Assembly: GCA_036160375.1 (NCBI GenBank)
Contig: JAYYDY010000109.1
Span: 1,677-65,676 of the forward strand
DNA length: 64,000 nt
DNA from: Thermoplasmatota archaeon
Lineage (GTDB): Archaea > Thermoplasmatota > Poseidoniia > Poseidoniales > Poseidoniaceae
Direction: 5' to 3'
Shown: positions 6,929 to 32,750 of the stretch, in pieces
Layout of the letters: each line of letters opens with the position of its first letter
How positions within the stretch are numbered: the stretch's first letter is position 1
Translations under genes and position numbers: made by a program
The notes under the pieces: model-generated
The model's database searches: none
What the model was told of the DNA's origin: nothing
The model's input: only the letters and a program-made list of their open reading frames with translations

Positions 6929-7483
6929 ATGTACAAGGTCGTAACCAAGGAAGACACCATCCGCATTCCTGCGGAATACATGCGCAAGGGTCAATCACTT
7001 GACCAGCACATCGATCGCTTGTCGATGGATGCTTTCGAAGGCAAATTCGACGCTGAAAACCGTTTCGTGTTGGTGACCAACAACCACAAGACCATCGGCC
7101 GTGGCCGTATCATTCACGGTGATGGTGCCATTTACCAGCGTGTTCAATTCGACGCAGTCTTGTTCTGCATGGACGACCAAGAAGTGGTCGAGGGTGCTGT
7201 TTCTGAGGTCAACGAATTCGGTGCGTTTGTCCGCATTGGACCCATGGAAGCCTTGCTTCACAAGTCCCAAATCATGGACGAACCCGTGGACATCAACATC
7301 GGAGCGAACAAAATTACAGGTCGACAGAGCGGTCGTGAGCTCTCCATCGGGTCATTCGTCCGTGCACGCATCGTCTCGCTTTCACCCGACACGTCCGACC
7401 CCCGTCGCTCCAAGATTGGGCTGACCAGCAAGCAGGACGGCCTCGGCTCCCCCCAGTGGGAACGCAAAGGAAGTGGTGAGTGA
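6929..7483 (+). CDS. rpoE: DNA-directed RNA polymerase subunit E' (Rpo7) with S1 domain
   Basis: The N-terminus MYKVVTKEDTIRIPAEYM and the S1 fold segment VEGAVSEVNEFGAFVRIGPMEALLHKSQI are typical of Rpo7. First gene of the conserved rpoE-spt4-S24e-S27ae operon. Confidence 0.9.
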   Translation: MYKVVTKEDTIRIPAEYMRKGQSLDQHIDRLSMDAFEGKFDAENRFVLVTNNHKTIGRGRIIHGDGAIYQRVQFDAVLFCMDDQEVVEGAVSEVNEFGAFVRIGPMEALLHKSQIMDEPVDINIGANKITGRQSGRELSIGSFVRARIVSLSPDTSDPRRSKIGLTSKQDGLGSPQWERKGSGE

Positions 7484-7485
7484 AC

Positions 7486-7689
7486 ATGGCGAAGATGCCC
7501 TTTGCCTGCGGCGAGTGCCACATGATTCTCAACGATGACGTCGATCAGTGCCCTCACCACCCCTCGGCCCACGTGTCCTCGGATTGGACAGGCTACGTCA
7601 TTATTGTCAACCCTGAACGCTCGGAGATTGCCAAGCGACTCCAAGTAGAAAAACCAGGTCGCTACGCCCTGAAAGTAAACATTCGATGA
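7486..7689 (+). CDS. spt4: transcription elongation factor Spt4 (RpoE'')
   Basis: Zn-ribbon CGEC...CPHH followed by WTGYVIIVNPERSEIAKRL, the standard Spt4 signature. ATG at 7486 follows the rpoE stop. Confidence 0.85.
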   Translation: MAKMPFACGECHMILNDDVDQCPHHPSAHVSSDWTGYVIIVNPERSEIAKRLQVEKPGRYALKVNIR

Positions 7690-7699
7690 AGGTGATATC

Positions 7700-8032
7700 A
7701 TGGAAATCAAGGAACGAAAAGAAAACAAAATTCTCAACCGCGTTGAACTTTCATTCAGCTGGAAGCACGACAAGAAATCCACGCCTTCTCGCAAGGAAGT
7801 GATCGCCCTCGTCCAGACCCTCGAACCGGGTGCAAACAGCGACCTCATTGTGGTCAAGGACTGCAACACTCGATTCGGTCAACCACTGACCACCGGCACG
7901 GCCTACATCTACAACTCGGCTGAAGCCATGGCCGTTGAGCCAGGGTACATCCAAAAGCGCCATGAAGAACTGCGAAGTTCTTCTGCCGCTGATGAGCCCG
8001 CCGCAGATGAATCTGAAGGAGGCGATGAGTGA
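7700..8032 (+). CDS. rps24e: 30S ribosomal protein S24e
   Basis: [34 protein letters not shown]...[20 protein letters not shown] matches the S24e pattern, with an acidic C-terminal tail. Confidence 0.9.
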
Positions 8033-10227: not shown

Positions 10228-11205
10228 ATGGTGGGCTGGTTCTCCAAGATGGTGGTCGCTACCACCGTTCGGATGCCCAAGTGGTTTGTCCGTTGGGTCA
10301 GTCGGCGCTACGTTGCAGGCGCCAGCCTTGACGATGCCGTGTCAGTCATGAAACGTTTGACTCATGAAGGCGCTTGTTTCACCATCGATGTCCTTGGCGA
10401 GGAAATCTCTTCGATGGATGAGGCTCAGTTTTTCCTCGAGGAATACATCCGAGTGATGGAAGCCATCAAAACCCACCAACTTGATGCCAATCTGAGCATC
10501 AAACCCACGGCCTTCGGACTCCTCATCGATCCTGAGCGGGGCATGGCCAACATCCGGCGCCTCGTGAAACTGGCTGCAGAGGAAGACATGTTTGTCCGAC
10601 TTGACATGGAAGATCATCGTGTCACCACCGATACCATCGATGTGGTGGTGGCGTTGCACGGAGAAGGCTTGACCAACGTCGGTACCGTGCTGCAGGGGCG
10701 ATTGTTCCGTACCCTTGGCGACATCGACGCTCTGGAAACGACCCTCGGTCCTGCAGCTGATTACAGGATTTGCAAGGGCATTTACCTCGAACCAGAGGAG
10801 ATCTCGTTCACAGGGTACCGGGACATTGTTGACGCCACGAACGCTGCCGTTGATCGCATGTTGGATGCAGGTGCGTACGTTGGAATTGCCAGTCATGACC
10901 AGCCGGTCATCGATCACGCCCTCTCTGCACTGTCGTCCCACGGCATGGGTCCGGGTGTCGATGACCCTCGCACCAATGCGGCCCCGGCCCGGCATCACAA
11001 AGGCCCCGGATATGAATTCCAAATGCTCCTCGGCGTCCGAGGACCGCTTCGTCGTCGTTTGTTGAGTGAAGGCCACCGAACCCGCGTCTACATTCCATAC
11101 GGAGAAAAGTGGTACGAATACAGCATTCGGCGTCTCAAAGAGAACCCAACGATTGGCACCCAGGTCGCCAAGGCGTTCTTGCTTCCTTGGACCAACCGAC
11201 CGTGA
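10228..11205 (+). CDS. proline dehydrogenase (Pro_dh family)
   Basis: FTIDVLGEE, LSIKPTAFGL, VRLDMEDH, TVLQGRLFRT, YRICKGIY, ASHD, EFQMLLGV and RVYIPYGEKWYEYSIRRLKENP appear in the canonical order of monofunctional ProDH. Confidence 0.85.
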   Translation: MVGWFSKMVVATTVRMPKWFVRWVSRRYVAGASLDDAVSVMKRLTHEGACFTIDVLGEEISSMDEAQFFLEEYIRVMEAIKTHQLDANLSIKPTAFGLLIDPERGMANIRRLVKLAAEEDMFVRLDMEDHRVTTDTIDVVVALHGEGLTNVGTVLQGRLFRTLGDIDALETTLGPAADYRICKGIYLEPEEISFTGYRDIVDATNAAVDRMLDAGAYVGIASHDQPVIDHALSALSSHGMGPGVDDPRTNAAPARHHKGPGYEFQMLLGVRGPLRRRLLSEGHRTRVYIPYGEKWYEYSIRRLKENPTIGTQVAKAFLLPWTNRP

Positions 11206-11976
11206 TCAGTTTCGCTTCTTCTTTTTCGAACGGCCTCGATTGGCGTTCGGGTTCACGCCTTTCTTGACGTGTTCTTTGGGTCGTTCTGGGTTGGGATTGA
11301 AACCCAACCGACCTTCTTTCCAGGCTTGACGACGTTCGCGTGGTGTCCGAGGAGCGAAGTGTTCCCCTTTGGGCGGTTCATGAAGGTACATTCGCTTGAT
11401 GTCAGGGGCTTGGACGGTGCCTCGCATCGTACGACCGGCGCCGGTGTGGATGGCACGAATGCGCCACGTTTCCCCGTTGTGCTCCATGAGATGAGAGCCG
11501 GTGAAGGTGGTCTCTTGAGGAACGACGAGAACGTCCGCTGTGGAATCTTCTCCTCGTGTCAGGGTCAATTTCACCCGAACCATATCGGTCCGGAGGGCCG
11601 TGATTCGTGCGATGTTGGCGGCCGTTTCTCCAGATGTGTGCTGTCCAGTTCGGAGCTCAATTTGGTGGATGCGCCACAGCATGTCGTCTTCTTCAAACAC
11701 ATCGCCAACGACGAACTCTTCGTCAGCATCCACCACCAAGACCACGCGGTTGGACTGCGGTCCATCGGTGAGGATGAAGGGGATGTTGGTTGGAGGTGGC
11801 GGTCGGAACACGACGGTGTGCACGCGTTCACATTCGGTGCAACGGACCTTGAAATCCGCACCGTCGCCGACTTTTTTCTCGTGAAGGATGTCGTGGGCCG
11901 TCATCTCTTCACACGAGGGGCAGTGCGTGGCATTGTCGAGGACTTCCTCTTCCTCCCACACTTCGTCATCGTCCAC
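11206..11976 (-). CDS. archaeal zinc-ribbon protein (COG1326 / HVO_0476-like) with a long basic C-terminal tail
   Basis: CPSC...HDIL...VRCTEC..VHTV Zn ribbon, then VVGDVFEEDDMLWRIHQIEL. The tail is RTPRERRQAWKEGR...RGRSKKKKRN. The ORF extends to 12132, but the R/S-rich N-terminus overlaps the divergent gene; GTG at 11976 is my preferred start (uncertain). Confidence 0.55.
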   Translation of the reverse strand: MDDDEVWEEEEVLDNATHCPSCEEMTAHDILHEKKVGDGADFKVRCTECERVHTVVFRPPPPTNIPFILTDGPQSNRVVLVVDADEEFVVGDVFEEDDMLWRIHQIELRTGQHTSGETAANIARITALRTDMVRVKLTLTRGEDSTADVLVVPQETTFTGSHLMEHNGETWRIRAIHTGAGRTMRGTVQAPDIKRMYLHEPPKGEHFAPRTPRERRQAWKEGRLGFNPNPERPKEHVKKGVNPNANRGRSKKKKRN

Positions 11977-12073: not shown

Positions 12074-12811
12074 ATGGCGGATGAGATGGATGGTCTTGAG
12101 CGGGGTGATGTCCTCGCCTTCCTTCTCTCCAAAGATGGGAACCAACCTCAGGACGAGCCCCTCATCGCTGCCAACATCCACGAACAACTCCAACACATGG
12201 GCCTCTCCACCTGGTCCATCTCCGTTCTGCGTCGATTGCGGGATGCCGTTGGTCGACTTGCTCCTGCTCGAGTCCTTGAAGTGGGCGCCAGCATCGGACA
12301 CCGAACGGCTTGGTTGCTTGATGAATTCGAGCGAAAGGAACGCACACCGACAGCGCTGACGTTGGTTGAACAGGGTGGCAAATTTGCCGTCATCTTGCAG
12401 CGGCTTCTGCAGCGCTATGAGGCCATGGACTGGGCTTCGGTCGTCGTGGGTGAGCCAGAACAACTCGCCGCCGAACATCAAGCATGGGCGTTGGCATCGG
12501 CCACCGGTACCGAATTGTCACAAACACCGTTTGAATCGGGGTACGATGTGATTGTGATCGACGGGCCCTCTCCCGTCCGGGCAAGCCTCGTGGCAACCTA
12601 CCTCGCGTTGCTCAATGACAACGGCGTTCTGTTCACCGTCGAACCAGACATGCCAACCGGGGACGTCGCAGAAGACGATGCTGAAGGCATGGCCATGGTC
12701 AACGGGTTCAATCGCTGGATTGAACTCGTCGGAGATACACAATCGACCCATCACGTTGCCTTCATGCCGCTCTTCGGGGGTACGCTTGTCGCCTGGCTTC
12801 CTCATGCCTGA
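12074..12811 (+). CDS. class I SAM-dependent (O-)methyltransferase-like protein
   Basis: VLEVGASIGHRTAWLL (motif I-like) and YDVIVIDG (post-I/II) match the family-3 O-methyltransferase layout. First ATG is at 12074. Confidence 0.6.
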   Translation: MADEMDGLERGDVLAFLLSKDGNQPQDEPLIAANIHEQLQHMGLSTWSISVLRRLRDAVGRLAPARVLEVGASIGHRTAWLLDEFERKERTPTALTLVEQGGKFAVILQRLLQRYEAMDWASVVVGEPEQLAAEHQAWALASATGTELSQTPFESGYDVIVIDGPSPVRASLVATYLALLNDNGVLFTVEPDMPTGDVAEDDAEGMAMVNGFNRWIELVGDTQSTHHVAFMPLFGGTLVAWLPHA

Positions 12812-13974
12812 GTGGCGAGGTCAATGAGCCCTGACACATTGAGCAAACCGTAGCCATAGTAATCGTCATGGGTGGTTTGACCTTCCTCAGGCACAGCACT
12901 GTCCATCAGCCAACGCTTGACCGTGTCAACGGTATCGGCACCGTTTGAAGCCTCGGGCTTTAGTTCAGGTTTTTCTTCAAGGAGAAGGCACAACGCGCCC
13001 GTGACATAGACCGTGGCAGCGCTGGTGCCATCGGCAATTCCCCAACCGCCGTCCTCTGTGAGAACCGGCACCCCTTCTGCAGGGGCCACCACTTCGGGCT
13101 TCTTGTTCGGGTCCCCTCTCGGCATCAAGATGGGGAGCGGGAGGAGCCGGCCATTGTTATCGCCCTTTGAAGAACCGGACCAGTGTGTCCCTTTGATGGT
13201 CACACCGCCTACAGAAATCACACCTGCTTCGCTGGAAGGGTGGGCCACATCACCGTCGTCATCCTCACCGTCATTTCCAGCGGCTGCGACAACGTACACG
13301 CCAGCATCGATGGCGTCGTTGGCCGCATCACCTGAAGTTCGTCCAGAACCGATGGAGAACGGAAGGATGTTTGGGGCTCCACCCAACGAGAGTGAAATGA
13401 CATCAGCCCCGTTTTCGACGCACCAATCAACAGCATCAGCGACGAGGGTGTCGCTGCCGCTTCCATCCGAACCCAGCGCTTTCGCCACCAAGAGGTCCAC
13501 TTCTTTTGCCATGCCTTTGAGCCACCCGTTGGCCACCAGCAACCCGGCCATGGATGTGCCATGACCGTGATCGTCGTAGGGTTCGCTGTTTCCGTTGATG
13601 AAATCCTTCCATCCTACCAAATTGACGCTCTCAAAGTCTGTATGGTCAAGAGCAATCCCCGAATCGACGATGCACGCCACAACGCCGTTGCCCGTCAAGG
13701 CTTCGGGGGCCGGTTGGACCAATTCGTGGTAGGTTGCATGCCGTTCGAGCGCGACCTCACTGGGCCTCAGCAAGATGGCACCATCGCTCATCAGCACCGC
13801 CCCCAGGTATCCAGCGGCGAGGACAAGCGTGATCCCGAGGGTGATGCTCACGACGAGTTTGATGGCCCTGATGTCCGACCCTTCATGGTCGATTTCTGCC
13901 TGGTAAGGCGGTGGAGCGGACCAAAATTTGGTCTGTTCTTCAATGGAAGCGTTGAGCCCGTCAACCGGTTCCAT
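12802..13974 (-). CDS. membrane-anchored subtilisin-like serine protease (S8)
   Basis: Catalytic triad motifs are in order: VACIVDSGI (Asp), DDHGHGTSMAGLL (His), DGTSAATVYVTGA (Ser). There is an N-terminal TM helix (VVSITLGITLVLAAGYLGAVL). Confidence 0.85.
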   Translation of the reverse strand: MEPVDGLNASIEEQTKFWSAPPPYQAEIDHEGSDIRAIKLVVSITLGITLVLAAGYLGAVLMSDGAILLRPSEVALERHATYHELVQPAPEALTGNGVVACIVDSGIALDHTDFESVNLVGWKDFINGNSEPYDDHGHGTSMAGLLVANGWLKGMAKEVDLLVAKALGSDGSGSDTLVADAVDWCVENGADVISLSLGGAPNILPFSIGSGRTSGDAANDAIDAGVYVVAAAGNDGEDDDGDVAHPSSEAGVISVGGVTIKGTHWSGSSKGDNNGRLLPLPILMPRGDPNKKPEVVAPAEGVPVLTEDGGWGIADGTSAATVYVTGALCLLLEEKPELKPEASNGADTVDTVKRWLMDSAVPEEGQTTHDDYYGYGLLNVSGLIDLATQA

Positions 13975-13978
13975 GGAA

Positions 13979-15193
13979 TCAACTCAGCGTGTGAACTATT
14001 TCAGTCAGTGTATCAACGAACCTTCGCACGTCTTCTTCGTTGTTGTAAAGGTAGGCCGATGCTCTGAGCGACCCTTGTGGGTGGCCACGGTCAGCAAACC
14101 AAGAGTGGACGCAGTGTTGGCCGCTGCGGACCATGACGCCTGCCGCTTCATCCAAGAGGAGAGCGACGTCATGGGCTGGCAGGCTGTCCATGAGAATGGA
14201 GCAAATGCCGCCACGTTTTGAGGCGTCTTCTGGACCGATGATGGAAAGACCAGGCAAATCCTTGACGCCTTGCGTCATGATGCGGTTCAAGCTGATTTCG
14301 TGCTCGTGCACTGCATTCATGTCCAGGTTTGACAAATACTCGATAGCAGCACCTGTGGCCATCATGCCGGAGAAGTTGCCCAGTCCACCTTCAAATCGCG
14401 CTGGGGGTGCTGCCCACGTGGCTTCGGTGTACGATGATGTCTGTACGGTTTGTCCTCCGGATTGGATGGTTCGGAGGTTCTCAAGCAGTTCGTAGCGGCC
14501 CCACAACCCGCCCATTCCGGACGGTCCGCACATTTTGTGGATGGAAAACGACAGGAAGTCGATGTCAAGCGCCTGTACGTCCACGTTCATGTGCGGTGTC
14601 GATTGAGCACCGTCAACCGCCACGAGTGCGCCGTGGTCGTGAGCAACTTTGGTGATCTCAGCAATGGGGATTTCGATACCGTCGAGGTTACCGACGTGGC
14701 TCATAGCCACCATTTTGAGGTTGCTTCCTGCTGCTGCGCATGCGGCTTCAAAGGCTTCCATGTCGAACGTGTTGTCCGGGTGACTGGCCACGACGCGATG
14801 GTCGATGCCCTGCTCTTGTTCAAGTTGAAGCCACGGTACGAGGTTCGAGTTGTGTTCACGGTCGGTCGTCAACACGACATCGCCTTTTTCCCACGAGAGT
14901 CCATGGGCGATTTGGTTGATGGAATGTGTCGCATTTCGCGTGAATACGATTTCGTTGGGCGTTCGAGCGTTGAGAAATTGCCCCAATTTGTTTCTTGAAT
15001 CAGCAACGGATTTTGATACGGCTGTTCCATAACGATGGACGGACCTTCCGCCACAGCCCGGCGTTTCGGTGTAATAGCGATGGATGGTGTCAATGACGGA
15101 TTGTGGCTTGAGCGTCACGCATGCGTTGTCAAGGTAAGCAGGGGGGTGCTCTCCACTGAGCGTTGGGAAATCTTCACGGTGTTGGCTGAACAT
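13979..15193 (-). CDS. cysteine desulfurase (class V aminotransferase, SufS/Csd-like)
   Basis: YLDNACVTLKPQ, FTRNATHSIN, TDREHNSN, SFSIHKMCGPSGMGGLWG (PLP Lys) and RSGQHCVHSW (active-site Cys loop). Start taken at MFSQHREDFP (ATG 15193), 1 nt after the upstream gene's stop. Confidence 0.85.
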   Translation of the reverse strand: MFSQHREDFPTLSGEHPPAYLDNACVTLKPQSVIDTIHRYYTETPGCGGRSVHRYGTAVSKSVADSRNKLGQFLNARTPNEIVFTRNATHSINQIAHGLSWEKGDVVLTTDREHNSNLVPWLQLEQEQGIDHRVVASHPDNTFDMEAFEAACAAAGSNLKMVAMSHVGNLDGIEIPIAEITKVAHDHGALVAVDGAQSTPHMNVDVQALDIDFLSFSIHKMCGPSGMGGLWGRYELLENLRTIQSGGQTVQTSSYTEATWAAPPARFEGGLGNFSGMMATGAAIEYLSNLDMNAVHEHEISLNRIMTQGVKDLPGLSIIGPEDASKRGGICSILMDSLPAHDVALLLDEAAGVMVRSGQHCVHSWFADRGHPQGSLRASAYLYNNEEDVRRFVDTLTEIVHTLS

Positions 15194-22976: not shown

Positions 22977-23696
22977 TCACAACAAACTTCGAAGTGCCTC
23001 TCGGTCGAAGTGTGAAACGGCTTGACGGAATGCATCCTGTGGCGTGAACCAAGCGGCTTCCGAAATCTCCTCGGTTTGAAGGGTGAGTTGGTCGAGGTTT
23101 CCGCCCCACGTTGAACGATAGGTGAACGAGACAAACGAAATGCCTTCGTCGTTGAAGATGTTTTGCGTGATGACGGGGTCAACGTCATCAAGCACAATGG
23201 TGAGCCCAAGTTCCTCAAGTGTTTCTCGAACGCAGCCAACGGCCGGATGCTCATCGTGGTCCATGTAACCGCCGGGGAGTGTCCAGAACCCCCTGAAATG
23301 GCCTCGCTCAACTTTCGCCATCAGGACATGACCGGAATCATTGCACACCATGACCTTTGAAACAAGTCGATGGATGGACCGGTAGATGGCATCACGAGCG
23401 ACGGGATGGACGGCGTTGTCAGCGGCACAGGCGTCTTTCCATGCCCAATCCATTGGCCAGGCAATCTTCGGGTAGGCTTTCACCACGTTGAATTCAGCAC
23501 CGCTGTACCGGAGGCAGAGGAGGTTTTTTTCCTCAAATTCTATTCCCATGGTTTTCACTTCGGAACGCGTGGGAAACCGCAGGCTGACGTCGGTTTCGAA
23601 GCGCCCTTTGACGGGTTGGAGGGGGCCATTTCCACGTTCGTCGACCAACAGCACCTTCCCATCGTGCTCCAGGTAGACAACCTCGGAGGGGTGCAT
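22977..23696 (-). CDS. NUDIX hydrolase with an approximately 110-aa N-terminal extension
   Basis: Nudix box GFWTLPGGYMDHDEHPAVGCVRETLEELGL (GX5EX7REUXEEXGU). Confidence 0.8.
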   Translation of the reverse strand: MHPSEVVYLEHDGKVLLVDERGNGPLQPVKGRFETDVSLRFPTRSEVKTMGIEFEEKNLLCLRYSGAEFNVVKAYPKIAWPMDWAWKDACAADNAVHPVARDAIYRSIHRLVSKVMVCNDSGHVLMAKVERGHFRGFWTLPGGYMDHDEHPAVGCVRETLEELGLTIVLDDVDPVITQNIFNDEGISFVSFTYRSTWGGNLDQLTLQTEEISEAAWFTPQDAFRQAVSHFDREALRSLL

Positions 23697-23742
23697 GCCT
23701 CGTCCACATCTCCGTCGGTCAAGAACCCTCGCTCGTCATTGC

Positions 23743-24948
23743 TCATTCCTTGGGATGCTCAATTTCTGTCGGTTCAGGAAGCGTCGCTTGAAGGGTCTCA
23801 GCGACTTTGAGTTCTTCCAATCGTCGGGCTTGCGGTAAGACCATTCGTCCGTAGGATGACATGGTGGCGTTGAAGGCGGTGGCTGCTTTCGAGAGGTGCC
23901 CACCGACCTTGGTGAGGTGCTCCATGGTCTTGTTCATCCGCTTGTAGAGTTCGCGTGAGACTTCGTAGATTTCGTTAGCACCTTCGGCCAAAGCGTGTTG
24001 CTGCCAATACAGGGCCACGGTTCTCAGCAAGCCAAGCATCGTGACAGGTGTGGCAATGAGCACGGATTTGCTCATGGCGTAATCCATCAAATCCGCATCC
24101 ATCGAAAACGCAGCGGCCGCCATGGCTTCACTTGGGATGAACATGACAACATGATCGAATTCACCCTCGATGGTTTCTTGGTATGCCTTTTTGCTCAATT
24201 CTGCAATCCTGCCACGCATGGCCTTGGCGTGTTTGTTCAACAACACGGTCTGTTCCTCACCCGGCTCGAGTTCAGCCGCTTGAAGAAAATGAGCGCCGGT
24301 TGCTTTGGAGTCGATGGGAATGACGCCGCTGTCTGGCAATCGGACCACGAAATCCGGTCGACTGCCGTCAGCGAGGGTCGTTTGCTCATCAAAATCGATG
24401 TTTTCGCTCATTCCGGCCATTTCGAACAACCGTCGAAGTTTGACTTCACCCCAGTTGCCACGTGCTTGGCTCGAAGTGGTCAACGCAGTTGAGAGTGCCG
24501 TGGTGCGGGTGGACAGTGATTCTGTTTTTTCTCCCAGTTCCCTGAGGTGGCGCTTGATGCCCTCATAGGCTCCTGCACGCTCTTTTTCCATTTCTGCATT
24601 CATGATGGTGAGTTTTGCCATTTCCTCTTGAATGGGCTTGACAAGGTTAGCGACCTCGAGCTTGCGTAGCTCCAATTCATGGGCCGCCTCTTGTTGTTGA
24701 TTGACGAGCTTTGCTTGAGCCATTTCGAGAAATCGGGTGGAATTTTCCTTGCCGATTTTGATGGCGATGTTTTCCACCTCTGCTCTGATCCGTTGTTCGT
24801 TCCCTTCCGCACTGGCCTCGCTAGCCCGAAGTCGCTCCTCAGCCCGGATGAGTTGCCCCGAGAGGGATTGCTTGGCGAGCAGCCATCCAATGGAGGCACC
24901 GATAGCGAGGCCTGCGAGGAGGAGTCCGTATTCAACGAGCGCTGTCAT
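23743..24948 (-). CDS. rmuC: DNA recombination protein RmuC
   Basis: N-terminal TM helix, a long coiled coil, then the nuclease core RPDFVVRLPDSGVIPIDSKA ... VMFIPSEA. Start taken at MTALVEYGLL (24948). Confidence 0.85.
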   Translation of the reverse strand: MTALVEYGLLLAGLAIGASIGWLLAKQSLSGQLIRAEERLRASEASAEGNEQRIRAEVENIAIKIGKENSTRFLEMAQAKLVNQQQEAAHELELRKLEVANLVKPIQEEMAKLTIMNAEMEKERAGAYEGIKRHLRELGEKTESLSTRTTALSTALTTSSQARGNWGEVKLRRLFEMAGMSENIDFDEQTTLADGSRPDFVVRLPDSGVIPIDSKATGAHFLQAAELEPGEEQTVLLNKHAKAMRGRIAELSKKAYQETIEGEFDHVVMFIPSEAMAAAAFSMDADLMDYAMSKSVLIATPVTMLGLLRTVALYWQQHALAEGANEIYEVSRELYKRMNKTMEHLTKVGGHLSKAATAFNATMSSYGRMVLPQARRLEELKVAETLQATLPEPTEIEHPKE

Positions 24949-25027
24949 GCACAAACAATCACGACGACGGTATATGATGAATCCCCTGACATCAACGTTC
25001 AAATCATGCCTGCCCCTCGCAGTCACT

Positions 25028-25738
25028 ATGCGTTTTGAACAGTTGAACGAGGGTGTTTGGGCCATGACTTACCTCATTGTCGACGAAGCAACCAACCAAG
25101 CAGCCTTGGTCGACCCTGGGTACGATTTCATGCAACAGTATGTTGACCTCGTTGAGAAGGACGGTCTCACCTTGACGTACGTCATCGCAACGCACACCCA
25201 TGCCGACCACATCACGGCCTGCTTCACCCTGCAAGAACGGTACAACTGCGAATACGTCATGTCGACCGAAACGGCGAGTCTTGGCGTGACCATGCACGTT
25301 GAGGACGAGGAAAAGATCATGCTCGGTTCCATTCCCATTCAGTTCCATGCCGCCCCAGGGCACACCAACGATTCCATGATCGTCCACGTCCCCGGCTACA
25401 TGATGACAGGCGACTTCCTGTTCAATGGTGCCGGAGGTGTTGGCCGAGACGATTTGCCCAGTGGTCGGATTCACGTTCATTGGGACGCCCTTCAAGTTCT
25501 TTCGCGATTCGAAGGATCGACCGTGGTGTGTTCGGGGCACGATCCTCCCGGTACCGAGATGATGTCGTTGGATTGGAACAGAGACCACAACCCTATTTTG
25601 TCCATGACCTCCTATGAGGAGTTCAAAACCTGGCAGGATGAAACGGCGGCAAAACTCGGAAGCGTCTCCAAGATCAAAACGGCCATCCCAGCCAACCTGT
25701 TTGGCGAGTTGCCAGAACGCATTCCCTGGCTTGAATGA
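25028..25738 (+). CDS. MBL-fold metallo-hydrolase (glyoxalase II-like)
   Basis: ATHTHADH (HxHxDH), APGHTNDS and SGHD motifs. Start taken at MRFEQLNEGVW; the longer ORF from 24737 overlaps rmuC. Confidence 0.8.
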   Translation: MRFEQLNEGVWAMTYLIVDEATNQAALVDPGYDFMQQYVDLVEKDGLTLTYVIATHTHADHITACFTLQERYNCEYVMSTETASLGVTMHVEDEEKIMLGSIPIQFHAAPGHTNDSMIVHVPGYMMTGDFLFNGAGGVGRDDLPSGRIHVHWDALQVLSRFEGSTVVCSGHDPPGTEMMSLDWNRDHNPILSMTSYEEFKTWQDETAAKLGSVSKIKTAIPANLFGELPERIPWLE

Positions 25739-27980: not shown

Positions 27981-28045
27981 CACTTTCACTTTCATCCTCT
28001 GGGGTCTTGCATAAGCATCCCTTGCTTGTTGGCTCTCAAACGGTT

Positions 28046-28315
28046 ATGGGTCGAAGTGTGCCGTCGTGGAGAATGCGGGTTGAGAATGAATTGCAGAACT
28101 TGGCGCCGTACCGTCGCGCCTTGACTCCGATGGACCGTGAGGCCTTTGACGCCTTGCTCAACGAAGTCCGTGAACGGAGAACAGCGGGGGGGCTCCTTCC
28201 GACACTGAACACATGGCAACCGGCTGTGCTCAGCATGTTGGTCGGGTTGATGTCGGAATTGAACCGGGTTTCTGCTCGACTTGAAGCCCTTGAGGGACGG
28301 CATGGCGATGATTGA
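28046..28315 (+). CDS. small alpha-helical protein, translationally coupled to the family-B polymerase
   Basis: ENELQNLAPYRRALTPMDREAFDALLNEVRERR...LSMLVGLMSELNRVSARLEALE. The stop (28313-28315) overlaps the polB start codons (ATG 28302 or 28308). First ATG is at 28046; the ORF track starts at TTG 28007. Confidence 0.5.
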   Translation: MGRSVPSWRMRVENELQNLAPYRRALTPMDREAFDALLNEVRERRTAGGLLPTLNTWQPAVLSMLVGLMSELNRVSARLEALEGRHGDD

Positions 28316-30794
28316 GGGATGGCTTCTCGACGTGCATGCGAACAAGGACAACACCGGCATGACGGCGTGGGTGGTCGACGACGACGGTCGTGCTCATGCG
28401 TGCGCCGTTCCATGGCAGCCGGTCATTCACGTTCACGCATCGTACACCGATCTCAACCGGTTGGAGCATTGGCTTGAGCAGCCCGAAATCCGTCAGCGTT
28501 TCCGGCTCACTCAGCCCAACATGACTCGAGCGCGTTTGGATTTGGAGGCCACCGGCCAAAGCGACGTCCTCGAGGTTGGACTCGAATTGTTTCAGCATGT
28601 TCGTGGACTGGCAGAACACATTGAATCTCGAGGTGACTTTCACCGTTTCAAACTCTACTCCGTTGACGCTCATTTGGCCCAACGATTCCTCAACGACCAC
28701 GGGTGCATCCCTTTCGCTCGGGTGCAGTGGTCTGCCGATGAGCGGGCGCGTTTGCTGATGTGCTCAAACACATCGGAACATGAGGCCTATCCTCCGTTTC
28801 ACGTCGTCAAGTTGTCCGTGAAACGGACATCGGGACAGGGGTTGCCAACCCTTCAGGATACCGTTGAATGGTTCCGTTTTGAAACGGTCCATGAGCCTGG
28901 TCTCTCACCACGGCAACCAATTCAGTCGTTAACCGTCAAACGTGCCGAACACGACTCCATGTCATCCATGCTGGCCGCCGTTCAAGCAGCGTACGATGCG
29001 ATGGACCCGGACGTTCTTCTCACGGAGGGTGGCGACCAGCGCTGGTTTCCATGGTTGGTCGAACAGGGTCGGCTTCACGGCCAATCGATGGTGCTTGGCC
29101 GAACACCGGAACCGCTTCAGCAAACGACCAACCAGCGTACGGTCCATTCCTACGGTCAAACGCGCCACCGACACGGAGCGTTCTTCCTCAACGGGCGCCT
29201 TCACATCGACCTCAAGAACAGCTTCATTGTGAGCGAAGGTGGTCTTGCCGGCTTGTTTGAACTGGCTCAACATTCGCGTCAATCAGCACAAATCATTTCC
29301 CGACTTTCACCGGGCTCGGTCATCAGCGCCATCCAAATGCGAGTGGCCATGGACGACGGGGTGCTTGTGCCGTGGAAGAAAAATCGCCCGGAGGACACGA
29401 AATCAGCCCTTGACCTGCTTCAGGCTGACCGAGGAGGTCTCTACCTTGACAGTCGCCCTGGTGTTCATGCGTCGGTGATCGAACTTGATTTTGCGAGTTT
29501 GTTTCCAAGCATCATCGCCACGCGAAACATCTCGCCTGAGACGCTGAATTGTTCGTGCTGCCAGCCACCGAACTCGGTCTCCAAACGCGGCATTGTCCCG
29601 CTTCACCCTGAACAAGCGGCTGACGAATTTCGTCAGCGTTCGGTTCACGCTCGTTTCGGCCACGGCCTCTTCCCGTTGGCACACGAGAAGGCGCTTGCCG
29701 TACCGGGGCTCAACATGCACACCTGTGGGCGAACGCACGGATTTCTCGGGCGTGTCGTGGCCCCCATCATTGAGCGAAGACGTGAGTTGAAACAGCAGCG
29801 TCAACACAAAGGCGACGCCTTTGACCTGCGGCAAAATGCGCTCAAGTGGCTGCTGGTCACGTGTTTTGGTTACACGGGTTATCGAAATGCACGTTTCGGT
29901 CGGATTGAAGCGCATGAAGCGATTTGTGCGTGGTCCCGCGACCTTTTGCTCACCACCATTGAGGAAGCGCAAAAGGACGGGTGGGATGTTCTTCACGCCA
30001 TCGTTGACTGCGTTTGGCTTTCGGATCTCAAAGGACGGACACAGCATCAACAACGGGTGGACGCCGAGGCGTTTGGTCGTCGTATTTCTGAGCAGGTCGG
30101 CATCCCGCTTGAGTTTGAGGCTCACTACGATTTCATCGCGTTTCTTCCCAGCCGGGTCCACGGGTCCGGTTCGTTGACGAAGTACTGGGCGTACGATGGG
30201 GGTTCGTTCAAGGTACGTGGTATTGAGATGCGACAACATTCCACGCCAGTCTGGATTCAACGATTGCAGCAGGCTGGCTTGGAGTGTTTAGCAGCCGGTG
30301 AGCGGAACGACGGCCTTCCTTCGTTTGGCACACAGCGCGCTGTTCTGCAGCATTACAGAAGGGAGCTTCAACGGTTGTCGAAGGGTGAAATTCCATTGCG
30401 TGAACTCGTCATTACCCGGCGAACCAGCCGCTCGCTGGGAGACTATCGCGTCAAGAACGTGACGTACGCTGCCCTCATGCGGGCCAACGAACGTGGGTAC
30501 GAGGTCCCTGCTGGGGGGAAGGTTCGCTATGTGGTTATGGACCGTGAATCAGATGTTCTTCTGGACCGCGTCGTTCTTGCAGAAGAATTGGATGCATTCG
30601 AGGTTGGTGTTCATGCGTGTGTTGGCCACTACGCTGAATTGGCTGAACGTGCCATCTGGGCGATTCTCGCTCCGTTTGGTTGGACCACAGCACAACTGCA
30701 AAACGAAGGTCGGCAACCTTCGTTGTTGGCGTTCACGACTCCGTATGGTGCAACGCAAGAACCCCAACCGATGAGGCCACCTCGTGAGGATTGA
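28302..30794 (+). CDS. polB: family-B DNA polymerase, PolB2-like: exonuclease motifs absent and motif C non-canonical
   Basis: Motif A VIELDFASLFPSIIATRNISPETL (DxxSLYPS) is intact. Motif B-like is LRQNALKWLLVTCFGYTGY. Motif C reads VLHAIVDCVWLSD versus the canonical YxDTDS. At the Exo I/II/III positions I read HVVKLSVK, GGDQRWFPWL and LFELAQHS, with no DxE, NxxxFD or YxxxD. A PIP-like QPSLLAF lies near the C-terminus. Confidence 0.85.
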   Translation: MAMIEGWLLDVHANKDNTGMTAWVVDDDGRAHACAVPWQPVIHVHASYTDLNRLEHWLEQPEIRQRFRLTQPNMTRARLDLEATGQSDVLEVGLELFQHVRGLAEHIESRGDFHRFKLYSVDAHLAQRFLNDHGCIPFARVQWSADERARLLMCSNTSEHEAYPPFHVVKLSVKRTSGQGLPTLQDTVEWFRFETVHEPGLSPRQPIQSLTVKRAEHDSMSSMLAAVQAAYDAMDPDVLLTEGGDQRWFPWLVEQGRLHGQSMVLGRTPEPLQQTTNQRTVHSYGQTRHRHGAFFLNGRLHIDLKNSFIVSEGGLAGLFELAQHSRQSAQIISRLSPGSVISAIQMRVAMDDGVLVPWKKNRPEDTKSALDLLQADRGGLYLDSRPGVHASVIELDFASLFPSIIATRNISPETLNCSCCQPPNSVSKRGIVPLHPEQAADEFRQRSVHARFGHGLFPLAHEKALAVPGLNMHTCGRTHGFLGRVVAPIIERRRELKQQRQHKGDAFDLRQNALKWLLVTCFGYTGYRNARFGRIEAHEAICAWSRDLLLTTIEEAQKDGWDVLHAIVDCVWLSDLKGRTQHQQRVDAEAFGRRISEQVGIPLEFEAHYDFIAFLPSRVHGSGSLTKYWAYDGGSFKVRGIEMRQHSTPVWIQRLQQAGLECLAAGERNDGLPSFGTQRAVLQHYRRELQRLSKGEIPLRELVITRRTSRSLGDYRVKNVTYAALMRANERGYEVPAGGKVRYVVMDRESDVLLDRVVLAEELDAFEVGVHACVGHYAELAERAIWAILAPFGWTTAQLQNEGRQPSLLAFTTPYGATQEPQPMRPPRED

Positions 30795-31560
30795 GTCGTC
30801 GTTTTGGGAGCAAGAAAGCGGTTTGTGGGTCCCGGTGGAAGGGCTGCCACGTACCTTGGATGCCACTTCGTCGGTGGACAACATGCAGCAACCGTTGCCT
30901 CCGGCGGCCTCGCCACGTACCTTCGAGGTGGTTTTGTGAATGGCGACGTACGTACCTCACGTGGCGTGCAAGATCAGACGGTCCGTGTTCAAGGCCGGTG
31001 ATGGCGACAACGGCCGTGTGGTGTCGGTGTGCGAGGTGGCGCAAGATGTTCGTGTGCCTTCGCAGAAGGGTTCGTGATTCCAACGATGAGACGGCATCGT
31101 CGCTGTGCATGGCCAACAACCCGTCCACCACCACCATGGGGGAGCGTGTGATGGCCAATTCATCGGGAAGCCGTTCCAGTTGCCGGTCGAGTTGATGCAG
31201 CGTGAACCCTCGACTGAGGTAGAGCCTTGCCAGACACGGTTCAACCTCAGCGCCCAGCGCCTCGAGAAGCGGGATGAACCGTGCGGGATCGATTCTGCAG
31301 GCCCCGTCCACCCAGTGGACGGTTCGTCCCTGAACCAACGCATGCGCAACCCAATGCTCGGCAACACAACGCATGCTTTTGCCCGAACGACCAGGTCCGC
31401 TAAGGTGGTAGAGTTGGCCTGCTTGCGGTTGAATTTGAGCAGGATCAATGCCGTGCGTTCGGCGAACAAGGGCGAGGTGTTTTCCTGCGATGGGGTTGAG
31501 GTTCTGCTTCATATCAATCATCGAAGGTCGCTCTCGGAGGTCGTCTATGCTTGTGAACAC
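30733..31560 (-). CDS. RecA-superfamily P-loop ATPase (RadB / aRadC / ImuA-like paralogue)
   Basis: Walker A is GQLYHLSGPGRSGKS. This is followed by RTVHWVDGACRIDPARF (compare the RadB yiDtE..f..eR), Walker B PMVVVDGLLAMH, then HTAVVAITG. The 3' end overlaps the polB 3' end by 62 nt, in convergent orientation. Confidence 0.65.
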   Translation of the reverse strand: MFTSIDDLRERPSMIDMKQNLNPIAGKHLALVRRTHGIDPAQIQPQAGQLYHLSGPGRSGKSMRCVAEHWVAHALVQGRTVHWVDGACRIDPARFIPLLEALGAEVEPCLARLYLSRGFTLHQLDRQLERLPDELAITRSPMVVVDGLLAMHSDDAVSSLESRTLLRRHTNILRHLAHRHHTAVVAITGLEHGPSDLARHVRYVRRHSQNHLEGTWRGRRRQRLLHVVHRRSGIQGTWQPFHRDPQTAFLLPKRRLNPHEVASSVGVLALHHTES

Positions 31561-31613
31561 CCCTCAACTTGAACTGAACCATCATCAACTTCAAACACCG
31601 CTGGCGTGGATAA

Positions 31614-32750
31614 TTGGTTGTGGTTGAGGAGCCGAGGAAGGTTGAGGCAACGGGCCCTCGCGTGTTGATTCACTGCGACCTCGATGCGTTCTTTGCGGCG
31701 GTGGAAACGCTGCACCATGGATTTGATGACGATGTGCCGCTCATCATCGGTTCCGATCCAAAGCAAGGGCGTGGAAGGGGAATTGTCTCGACCTGCAATT
31801 ATGCAGCCCGGACCTTTGGTATACGCTCGGCGATGCCTGTATCCGAAGCATGGAGGCGCTGTCCGGCCGCCCCGTTTGGACCTGCCATCTACATACGGGG
31901 CACGCGTGGCCTGTACAGCCGTGCGAGTCGGAAGGTCATGGCGTGCTTGCGGGAACCAGCGGTGTTGTTTGAAAAGGCCAGCATCGATGAAGCCTACCTG
32001 GACGTGACCGAAACCGTCGGAGGAGATTGGGACGCAGCGTTAGCGCTGGCGAATCAGTTGCAACAGACGATCAAAGAACGGGTGAACCTGACGGCCTCGT
32101 TTGGGATTGGTCCCACACGAATCGTCGCGAAGATGTCCAGTGAAGTGAACAAGCCCAACGGGATTCATCGCGTCATGCCCGACGAGGTCGTATCGTTTTT
32201 CCAGGGTCGCTCGCTCAGGGACATTCCTGGCATCGGACCGAAGCGTGCGACCCAACTGGCTGAGTGGGGCTACACCACGGCTGATGAACTCCATGAACTC
32301 GGGGAACTCTCGTTGGCACGATTGGCAGGCGACCGTTTCGCGCATTGGTTCATGCGAGTGGTGGAGGGCGAGAGCAGCGCTGTGGTCAGTCCACTTCGCA
32401 GCAGGAAATCCATTGGCAAGGAGCACACGTTCGAACGGGATCTTGACGATCATGAAGACGTCCTTTCAAGGTTGGAGACGCTCGTGGACCTCGTCATGGA
32501 GCGTGCTCGCACTCTTGGGGTATCCGGACGATTGGGTGAGGTCAAAATTCGCTACACAGGCTTTGAAACGCACACAAGCGGGCGAAGCATTCCCGTGGCC
32601 ATGGACGACGAGTCCGTGTTCAAGCGGTTGGCCAGGCAGCTCTTCGCGACCAACATCCGTCCCGAGAGCCGGGTGCGACTGATCGGCTTTCGACTGGGTC
32701 AGTTGGAAATGCCACCTTCGCGCCAAACCACCCTCTTTGAGGAGGAATGA
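31614..32750 (+). CDS. dinB: Y-family DNA polymerase IV (DinB/Dbh/Dpo4-like), catalytic residues intact
   Basis: VLIHCDLDAFFAAVE, STCNYAARTFGIRSAMP, SIDEAYLDVT and IGPTRIVAKMSSEVNKPNG. C-terminal PIP-like QTTLFEEE. There is no upstream ATG; the start is TTG 31614 or GTG 31662. Confidence 0.9.
   Translation: MVVVEEPRKVEATGPRVLIHCDLDAFFAAVETLHHGFDDDVPLIIGSDPKQGRGRGIVSTCNYAARTFGIRSAMPVSEAWRRCPAAPFGPAIYIRGTRGLYSRASRKVMACLREPAVLFEKASIDEAYLDVTETVGGDWDAALALANQLQQTIKERVNLTASFGIGPTRIVAKMSSEVNKPNGIHRVMPDEVVSFFQGRSLRDIPGIGPKRATQLAEWGYTTADELHELGELSLARLAGDRFAHWFMRVVEGESSAVVSPLRSRKSIGKEHTFERDLDDHEDVLSRLETLVDLVMERARTLGVSGRLGEVKIRYTGFETHTSGRSIPVAMDDESVFKRLARQLFATNIRPESRVRLIGFRLGQLEMPPSRQTTLFEEE

Follow-up and report, generated by a model that had tools for sequence, protein, structure and literature searches.

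The window (the whole 64,000-nt stretch of DNA analysed) contains a PolB2 locus at 28046–32750. The most probable reading of this locus, to which we give a probability of about 0.8, is the Poseidoniales PolB2 translesion mutasome with DinB as an independent neighbor. The trio of PPB2, PolB2 and iRadA is the Poseidoniales (Marine Group II) copy of the already published PolB2 mutasome operon. The initial annotation of this DNA had proposed a damage-tolerance, mutasome-like unit of four genes, which holds for the small open reading frame (ORF), the PolB gene and the RadA-like gene; the membership of dinB is unsupported. The four ORFs of that annotation were all recovered at the same positions and are listed below.

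28046–28315, + strand: PPB2, the small ORF, 89 aa, with an ATG start.
28302–30794, + strand: PolB2, the B-family polymerase, 830 aa from the ATG at 28302; the mechanical ORF begins at TTG 28281.
30733–31521, − strand: iRadA, the RadA-like protein, 262 aa; the ATG was chosen to fit the lengths of homologs, and the mechanical ORF begins at GTG 31560.
31614–32750, + strand: DinB / Pol IV, 378 aa, with a TTG start.

The tight packing of the four genes with interlocking boundaries was reproduced when the ORF coordinates were re-derived and the overlaps were measured. PPB2, whose stop codon is at 28313–28315, overlaps the start of PolB2 by 14 nt. PolB2 and iRadA are convergent, and their 3' ends overlap by 62 nt (30733–30794). 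iRadA and dinB are divergent and separated by a spacer of 92 nt with the ATG at 31521, or of 53 nt with the GTG at 31560. The arrangement suggests that PPB2 and PolB2 are co-transcribed, with translational coupling because their stop and start codons overlap. iRadA is a separate, convergent transcription unit with its own promoter. The four-gene region has the same GC fraction (0.57) as the remainder of the window, so the locus is not a compositional island; the uniform GC together with the stable synteny with housekeeping genes also ruled out a mobile element. In the 62-nt antisense overlap, the conserved C-terminal tail of iRadA (VGVLALHHTES) lies opposite the poorly conserved tail of PolB2 that follows its C-terminal clamp-binding-like motif, and most Poseidoniales loci have a positive PolB2/iRadA 3' overlap (4–167 nt).

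By its sequence, the polymerase is PolB2, a predicted exonuclease-dead B-family translesion 'extender'. It matches Pfam DNA_pol_B at 3.5e-20 and PolB structures in the PDB at values reaching 1e-49, with ELDFASLFPSII aligned to YLDFRSLYPSII (motif A Asp). The motif A Asp is retained as D395. At the positions of Exo I (FDIET) and Exo II (D215) in the alignment with Thermococcus PolB, the residues are non-conserved and non-acidic. The Exo III region could not be aligned to Thermococcus PolB, and the Pfam scan of PolB2 gave no exonuclease-domain match. The earlier description of this protein as an exonuclease-less PolB agrees with the loss of acidic residues at Exo I and Exo II relative to Thermococcus PolB structures.

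The polymerase motifs of PolB2 are also modified. At motif C, PolB2 has HAIVDCV where Thermococcus PolB has YSDTDGF and Sulfolobus islandicus (S. islandicus) Dpo2 has HSIIDSL, which corresponds to a change from DTD to IVD. Motif B reads KWLLVTCFG versus KILANSLYG in the aligned PolB, with the Asn and Tyr replaced. Three residues are invariant here: the Asp of motif A, the second Asp of motif C and the Lys of motif B. A D(K/R) motif, QADRGG, follows the loop that is proposed to bind iRadA; in this loop and motif (VLVPWKKNRPEDTKSALDLLQADRGG), 25 of 26 positions are invariant or near-invariant in 16 sequences, and the segment aligns with IPKIVPRVEKLRRLENIMMADKGG of S. islandicus Dpo2. Over the whole protein, BLASTP against S. 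islandicus Dpo2 gave 28% identity (E 1e-30) with all the PolB2 motifs aligned. The C-terminal RQPSLLAF aligns with RQVGLGAW, the PCNA-binding-type C-terminal motif of Thermococcus PolB, and is kept as [QK]xx[ST]Lxx[FY] throughout the relatives. Both of the C-terminal motifs pointed out in the initial annotation, QPSLLAF in PolB2 and QTTLF in DinB, are present and kept in relatives. Compared with S. islandicus Dpo2, PolB2 also has about 45–50 additional residues inserted between motifs A and B (about 29544–29726; residues ~415–475). The insertion is flanked by the invariant residues C416, C418, C419, H472 and C474, a pattern from which it may be read as a metal-binding site.

The small ORF encodes PPB2 (arCOG07300 / Pfam PF26485 DUF8156). 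A precomputed PF26485 match was found on every PPB2 homolog with E ≤ 1e-12 (53 of 54 matches), and the PPB2 profile matched that of Sulfolobus PPB2 in hhalign with a probability of 69% (E 4.4e-5). The published family has about 90 aa, three helices and an MGRT arm with Arg3 and Arg9 (PMC11791011). The N-terminal arm in the window, MGRSVPSWR, fits this motif including R3 and R9 (PMC11791011), and MGR[ST]VPxWR was found in 76/76 related loci in which the PPB2 N-terminus is covered. The AlphaFold model consists of a free arm and three helices (7–25, 28–47 and 57–88), with a predicted local distance difference test (pLDDT) value of 74.

The invariant arm (28046–28072 in the window) is lost in many public gene calls, which begin PPB2 at an internal Met. 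Examples of shortened calls are P0192, P0193 and others (80 aa) and the one at 11116–11343 of locus L081. MBN29952, the PPB2 modelled in PMC11791011, also starts at an internal Met and has no MGRS arm. The same paper names the N-terminal arm of PPB2 as the key element of interaction (PMC11791011). Annotations without this arm could degrade structure modelling.

The RadA-like gene encodes iRadA, an inactivated RadA/Rad51 paralogue. Its match to Pfam Rad51 is weak (1.3e-3), and its profile matched RadB 2cvf (1.2e-5) and RadA 4a6p (1e-4) in the PDB. The AlphaFold model (pLDDT 82) was matched by Foldseek to RAD51/RadA/DMC1 cores with E ~1e-11 and template modelling (TM) scores of 0.6–0.7. The N-terminal helix-hairpin-helix domain is absent, and the core begins at about residue 18 of the 262 aa. 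The DTE motif of RadA is aligned with DGA (VHWVDGACR), and the catalytic Glu, which we take to be the equivalent of RecA E96, is replaced by Ala. This position is Ala or Ser in 78/78 iRadA relatives, among which the Walker B Asp is invariant. The Walker A motif GxxxxGK[ST] is kept in 40/74 relatives and degenerate in 34/74. Judged from these residues, ATP hydrolysis by iRadA has very likely been lost. The window protein is 67% identical to MBN29950, which was modelled as iRadA in PMC11791011. The earlier label 'RecA-fold ATPase' is therefore right about the RadA/Rad51 core fold but overstated about the ATPase, since no relative retains the Glu and about half have a degenerate P-loop. An active ATPase, which the intact Walker A in the window had prompted, was dropped for the same two reasons.

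The adjacency of the trio is not unique to this contig. Its conservation in relatives, a check that had been named beforehand, was assessed in 80 loci from GTDB species representatives, all of them Poseidoniales metagenome-assembled genomes, onto which ten window proteins were mapped. Wherever the contig extends far enough, PPB2(+), PolB2(+) and a convergent iRadA(−) are all present. The full trio is present in 76/80 loci; three are without the PPB2 side only and one is without the iRadA side only, each at a contig end. Two more distant loci, L081 and L082 (61% and 41% GC), carry PPB2-PolB2 and a convergent iRadA but no DinB. All 82 related loci thus encode PolB2 with PPB2 and iRadA wherever the contig extends to the partners, and iRadA is convergent on PolB2 in all 81 loci reaching it, across two genomic contexts. 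The 80 loci fall into two clades.

Clade 1: 52 loci, PolB2 48–97% identical; gene order RmuC, Lactamase_B, membrane protein, 2-Hacid_dh, PPB2, PolB2, iRadA, DinB, class I aminoacyl-tRNA synthetase (aaRS), MMPL transporter.
Clade 2: 28 loci, PolB2 47–50% identical; the trio lies among ABC transporters, histidine phosphatase and unknowns, with no DinB.

This operon has been described before. In 2013/2014, Makarova and Koonin described an operon of PolB2, arCOG07300 and inactivated RadA (PMC4104785), and Timinskas, Timinskas and Venclovas in 2025 named the PolB2 mutasome and modelled it as a heteropentamer (PMC11791011). The dataset of the latter study includes Poseidoniales operons as group 3b (PPB2-PolB2-iRadA), of which MBN29950, MBN29951 and MBN29952 were modelled as a heteropentamer with a ranking score of 0.81 (PMC11791011). 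The novelty that the initial annotation had claimed for an archaeal cassette is therefore lost, because the operon was described in 2013–14 and modelled in 2025 (PMC4104785, PMC11791011) with Poseidoniales included. The locus in the window has the same three families, all the diagnostic features, the order PPB2-PolB2-iRadA and the same flanking Pfam families as group 3b (Table S1), and nothing essential differs from the published PolB2 mutasome. The details that go beyond PMC11791011 are the convergent iRadA overlapping the 3' end of PolB2, the Walker A motif in about half of the iRadAs, the tandem element described below and the truncated PPB2 calls.

DinB is a separate and catalytically intact Pol IV of bacterial type. 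It matches Pfam IMS (PF00817) at 2e-36, HHH (PF11798) and IMS_C (PF11799). With the NCBIfam Pol IV model NF002677 it scores 264.5 bits, above the cut-off of 256, and with the archaeal Dpo4-type model NF002292 it scores 148 bits, below the cut-off of 339. The catalytic acidic residues are intact (DLDAFF, SIDEAYLD), and the C-terminal RQTTLFEEE is conserved in clade 1. This C-terminus looks closer to the bacterial beta-clamp QLxLF motif than to a canonical PCNA-interacting protein (PIP) box, and the sequence suggests a DinB of bacterial origin with a re-targeted clamp motif.

The place of dinB beside the trio was compared across the loci. Of the 69 loci that extend 1.5 kb or more past iRadA, 49 have DinB and 20 do not. 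Among the 60 loci that extend 4.5 kb or more past it, DinB and the class I aaRS occur in the same 47. Where both flanks are available (60 loci), 2-Hacid_dh and DinB are both present in 44 and both absent in 16, with no mixed case. Because the presence of DinB tracks unrelated flanking genes perfectly, its adjacency is clade-specific synteny: it reflects the chromosomal context of one clade, counts as one evolutionary event and does not belong to the conserved make-up of the module. No repair genes were found in place of dinB in clade 2, where ABC transporters, histidine phosphatase, DUF454 and unknowns are present instead. In Table S1 of PMC11791011, IMS is found in 56/1823 operon neighborhoods, 46 of them in group 3b, and the neighbors of group 3b (n=95) include IMS 46, 2-Hacid_dh_C 45, tRNA-synt_1 42 and Lactamase_B 32. 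The earlier placement of DinB as a fourth member of the unit is unsupported for these reasons, its absence from 20/69 loci and its tracking with 2-hydroxyacid dehydrogenase and class I aaRS.

The PPB2-PolB2 unit is preceded by a conserved tandem element, and the iRadA unit has a conserved promoter region of its own. The promoter features are as follows.

27981–27994, + strand: CACTTTCACTTTCA, two ANTTTC hexamers in tandem, located about −65 to −52 relative to the start codon of PPB2; candidate promoter element for a response to DNA damage.
28002–28007 and 28011–28018, + strand: GGGTCT box and A/T-rich ATAAGCAT; putative core promoter (BRE/TATA-like) of PPB2-PolB2.
31543–31599, − strand: iRadA promoter region, within the iRadA/dinB divergent spacer.
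Blocks of the iRadA promoter, − strand: GGTGTTTGAAGTTGATG at 31599–31583; degenerate tandem GGTTCAGTTCAAG at 31580–31568; GGGGTGTTC; CAAGCATAGAC at 31553–31543.

In upstream sequences anchored on the PPB2 start codon, the GGGTCT and A/T-rich blocks are conserved. Allowing up to 4 mismatches, the element CACTTTCACTTTCA precedes PPB2 in 75/76 loci and is an exact copy in 31; both clades keep it, although the genes farther upstream differ between them. The iRadA promoter blocks are kept in 32 aligned loci among L001–L039. A position weight matrix (PWM) of the element (~18 bits; consensus CAyTTTCAsTTTCA) was scanned over 2.9 million positions, which gave 179 matches at a threshold of at least 12 bits. 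Among them, 86 are upstream of PPB2, 40 are upstream of iRadA in the iRadA orientation and 53 are elsewhere, so that 126/179 strong matches lie upstream of PPB2 or iRadA. By chance, about 0.3 matches would be expected in the iRadA upstream regions. The 40 matches on the iRadA side score 12–22 bits and belong to more distant loci. Roughly half of the loci, namely L034, L040–L064 and L066–L080, have the element upstream of iRadA. In L081 and L082, element variants are present at both the PPB2 and iRadA promoters. When the PWM was used to look for more regulon members, the 53 non-promoter matches were scattered, mostly inside ORFs or without a downstream ORF. The PPB2-side element is the sole strong match in the 64-kb window (25.3 bits); of four weaker matches in the window, three are inside long ORFs. 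These results indicate that the shared element probably co-regulates the PPB2-PolB2 and iRadA units.

The two tandem ACTTTC units in the window correspond to the hexamer 5'-ANTTTC-3' of the Sulfolobales DNA-damage response element (DDRE) as defined in PMC6061795. Orc1-2 of S. islandicus binds ANTTTC, and the induction of dpo2 depends on Orc1-2 (PMC6061795). By analogy, the element plausibly has a damage-responsive role, in which case the regulator could be linked to Orc1/Cdc6. No Orc1/Cdc6 gene was recognized in the window, where no ORF of at least 150 aa besides iRadA has a Walker A motif (GxxxxGK[ST]), and orc1/cdc6 neighbors are recorded for 0/95 operons of group 3b (Table S1, PMC11791011). 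In the 61%-GC relative L081, an AsnC/Lrp-type helix-turn-helix (HTH) regulator (7461–7907) divergently adjoins iRadA, and a similar one lies about 5 kb off in L082; such a protein could be an alternative regulator for the element. The tandem element is a new detail, and the PolB2 mutasome paper PMC11791011 does not mention it. A wider proposal is that the element marks a DNA-damage regulon in marine Thermoplasmatota related to Orc1-2/DDRE, and that in the clade of the window it also controls the bacterial-derived DinB. We regard this proposal as tentative and rather doubtful. If it were true, DinB and PolB2 would be a genomically linked inserter-extender pair.

Several observations weigh against the mutasome reading or narrow it. 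In the window, iRadA keeps the Walker B Asp as well as a perfect Walker A motif (GPGRSGKS); nucleotide binding by this protein is therefore possible, and such binding may persist in some species. The profile-profile comparison of iRadA with Sulfolobus iRadA (hhalign) gave no signal (E 0.77). This is expected, because the three iRadA arCOGs have no remaining mutual similarity (PMC4104785), but it means that the orthology with Sulfolobus iRadA rests on fold, context, shared RadA descent and the published dataset. In the clade of the window, the iRadA-side copy GGTTCAGTTCAAG is conserved but degenerate, with a period of 5 instead of 6 and a score below 9 bits, and the co-regulation of PPB2 and iRadA is therefore weaker there than elsewhere. 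The 92-nt iRadA/dinB spacer is fully conserved, and dinB may be co-regulated with iRadA because this spacer holds the element between two putative core promoters. Complex formation, polymerase activity and inducibility are extrapolated to the Poseidoniales proteins from their better-known counterparts.

The conserved spacer also bears on a broader reading, in which all four genes form one module, the inserter DinB and the extender PolB2 being co-regulated from the iRadA/dinB region and possibly in physical contact. Consistent with it, every clade-1 locus that extends this far has dinB directly divergent from iRadA, the tandem-like element lies between the two divergent core promoters, and the C-termini of both PolB2 and DinB are conserved and clamp-binding-like. 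In L040, a 2.3-kb insertion (12401–14732) splits PolB2 from iRadA, while iRadA is still directly divergent from dinB. The sequential action of Dpo4 and then Dpo2 has also been documented in Sulfolobus (PMC8721586). However, dinB is missing from the flanks of 20/69 informative loci and from both distant loci, its presence is perfectly collinear with unrelated housekeeping neighbors, which points to a single evolutionary event, and the scan of the loci at 12 bits or more gave no PWM match in the dinB orientation. A Y-family neighbor is recorded in only 56/1823 operons, 46 of them in one group (PMC11791011), and the Y-family polymerase of S. islandicus is not damage-induced (PMC6061795). We consider a four-gene module unlikely.

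Two other readings concern the trio itself. The losses in PolB2 and iRadA, namely the first Asp of motif C (IVD), the Asn and Tyr of motif B, the exonuclease site and the catalytic Glu of iRadA, would fit a catalytically inert complex with a regulatory or structural role at origins or stalled forks, a view put forward in 2014 (PMC4104785). This is very unlikely: S. islandicus Dpo2 with a similar IID is a robust polymerase required for targeted mutagenesis (PMC8764526), and here the Asp of motif A, the second Asp of motif C and the Lys of motif B do not vary. Still less probable, to the point of being hardly credible, is that the RadA-like gene is an ordinary RadB or another RadA paralogue with incidental adjacency, a possibility raised by the initial annotation. 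The top PDB sequence match is to RadB (2cvf, E 1.2e-5) and Walker A is kept in the window, but the NCBIfam scan of iRadA at E ≤ 0.1 gave no RadB/RadA match besides RAD51 at 0.057. The catalytic Glu is replaced in 78/78 relatives with a degenerate P-loop in 34/74, the gene is always beside PolB2 and convergent with it in all 81 loci of two genomic contexts, and its promoter element is common to PPB2.

In the mutasome that we favor, one PolB2, one iRadA and a PPB2 trimer would form a heteropentamer, as in the published AlphaFold models. According to these models, the MGR(S/T) arm of PPB2 would insert between PolB2 and iRadA, near DNA, and the PolB2 loop ending in QADRGG would bind iRadA in the way RadA subunits bind one another. 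The C-terminal QPSLLAF of PolB2 could tether the complex to PCNA. By analogy with Sulfolobus biochemistry, the proofreading-deficient PolB2 would extend primer ends that are mismatched or paired with a lesion; in Sulfolobus, Dpo2 acts as an extender (PMC8764526). DinB may act as the lesion inserter before PolB2, like Dpo4, which inserts before Dpo2 extends (PMC8721586).

The Dpo2 system of S. islandicus (SiRe_0614/0615 and iRadA) shares with the present one the IxD motif C, the absence of proofreading, the D(K/R) motif, the MGRT arm of PPB2 and, ahead of the start codon, a candidate ANTTTC element. The two systems differ in that the polymerases are only 28% identical, iRadA is unalignable by profile and no orc1/cdc6 is nearby here. 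Two hexamers in tandem make up the element here (about −65 to −52), against a single one at −23 to −55 in Sulfolobus. Polymerase activity and the extension of mismatched or lesion termini are known from the Sulfolobus enzymes.

The comparison with bacterial ImuA-ImuB-DnaE2 made in the initial annotation is an analogy only. The logic is alike, with a RecA-like accessory, a non-proofreading replicase-family polymerase and a Y-family protein for damage tolerance. However, DnaE2 is a C-family and PolB2 a B-family polymerase, ImuB is a Y-family adaptor without catalytic activity, in contrast to the DinB here with its intact catalytic acidic residues, and the bacterial system has no PPB2 equivalent and is not homologous to the PolB2 system. 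The published analogy for the PolB2 mutasome is Pol V, UmuC-UmuD'2-RecA (PMC11791011). E. coli Pol V likewise combines a polymerase, a small oligomeric accessory, one RecA/RadA-family subunit bound via an oligomerisation-like motif and a clamp-binding motif. In contrast to the PolB2 complex, its polymerase is Y-family, its RecA is the active cellular recombinase and UmuD' is unrelated to PPB2.

Outside the locus, a NUDIX hydrolase and an RmuC-family DNA recombination protein are encoded at 22977–25065, 3–5 kb upstream. RmuC is part of the block conserved in clade 1, and DNA-metabolism genes are loosely clustered in this region.

The core result is an independent rediscovery of the PolB2 mutasome; it backs the earlier reasoning and adds nothing new. 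The remaining interest is in the conserved tandem element and the clade-specific dinB linkage. The adjacency of dinB provides a natural place for testing the inserter-extender model outside Sulfolobus. The split operon in all Poseidoniales appears to be joined by a shared and highly conserved cis-element that resembles the only known archaeal DNA-damage response element. This cis-element offers a concrete way of testing how damage responses are regulated in an abundant ocean lineage that is uncultured and exposed to sunlight.

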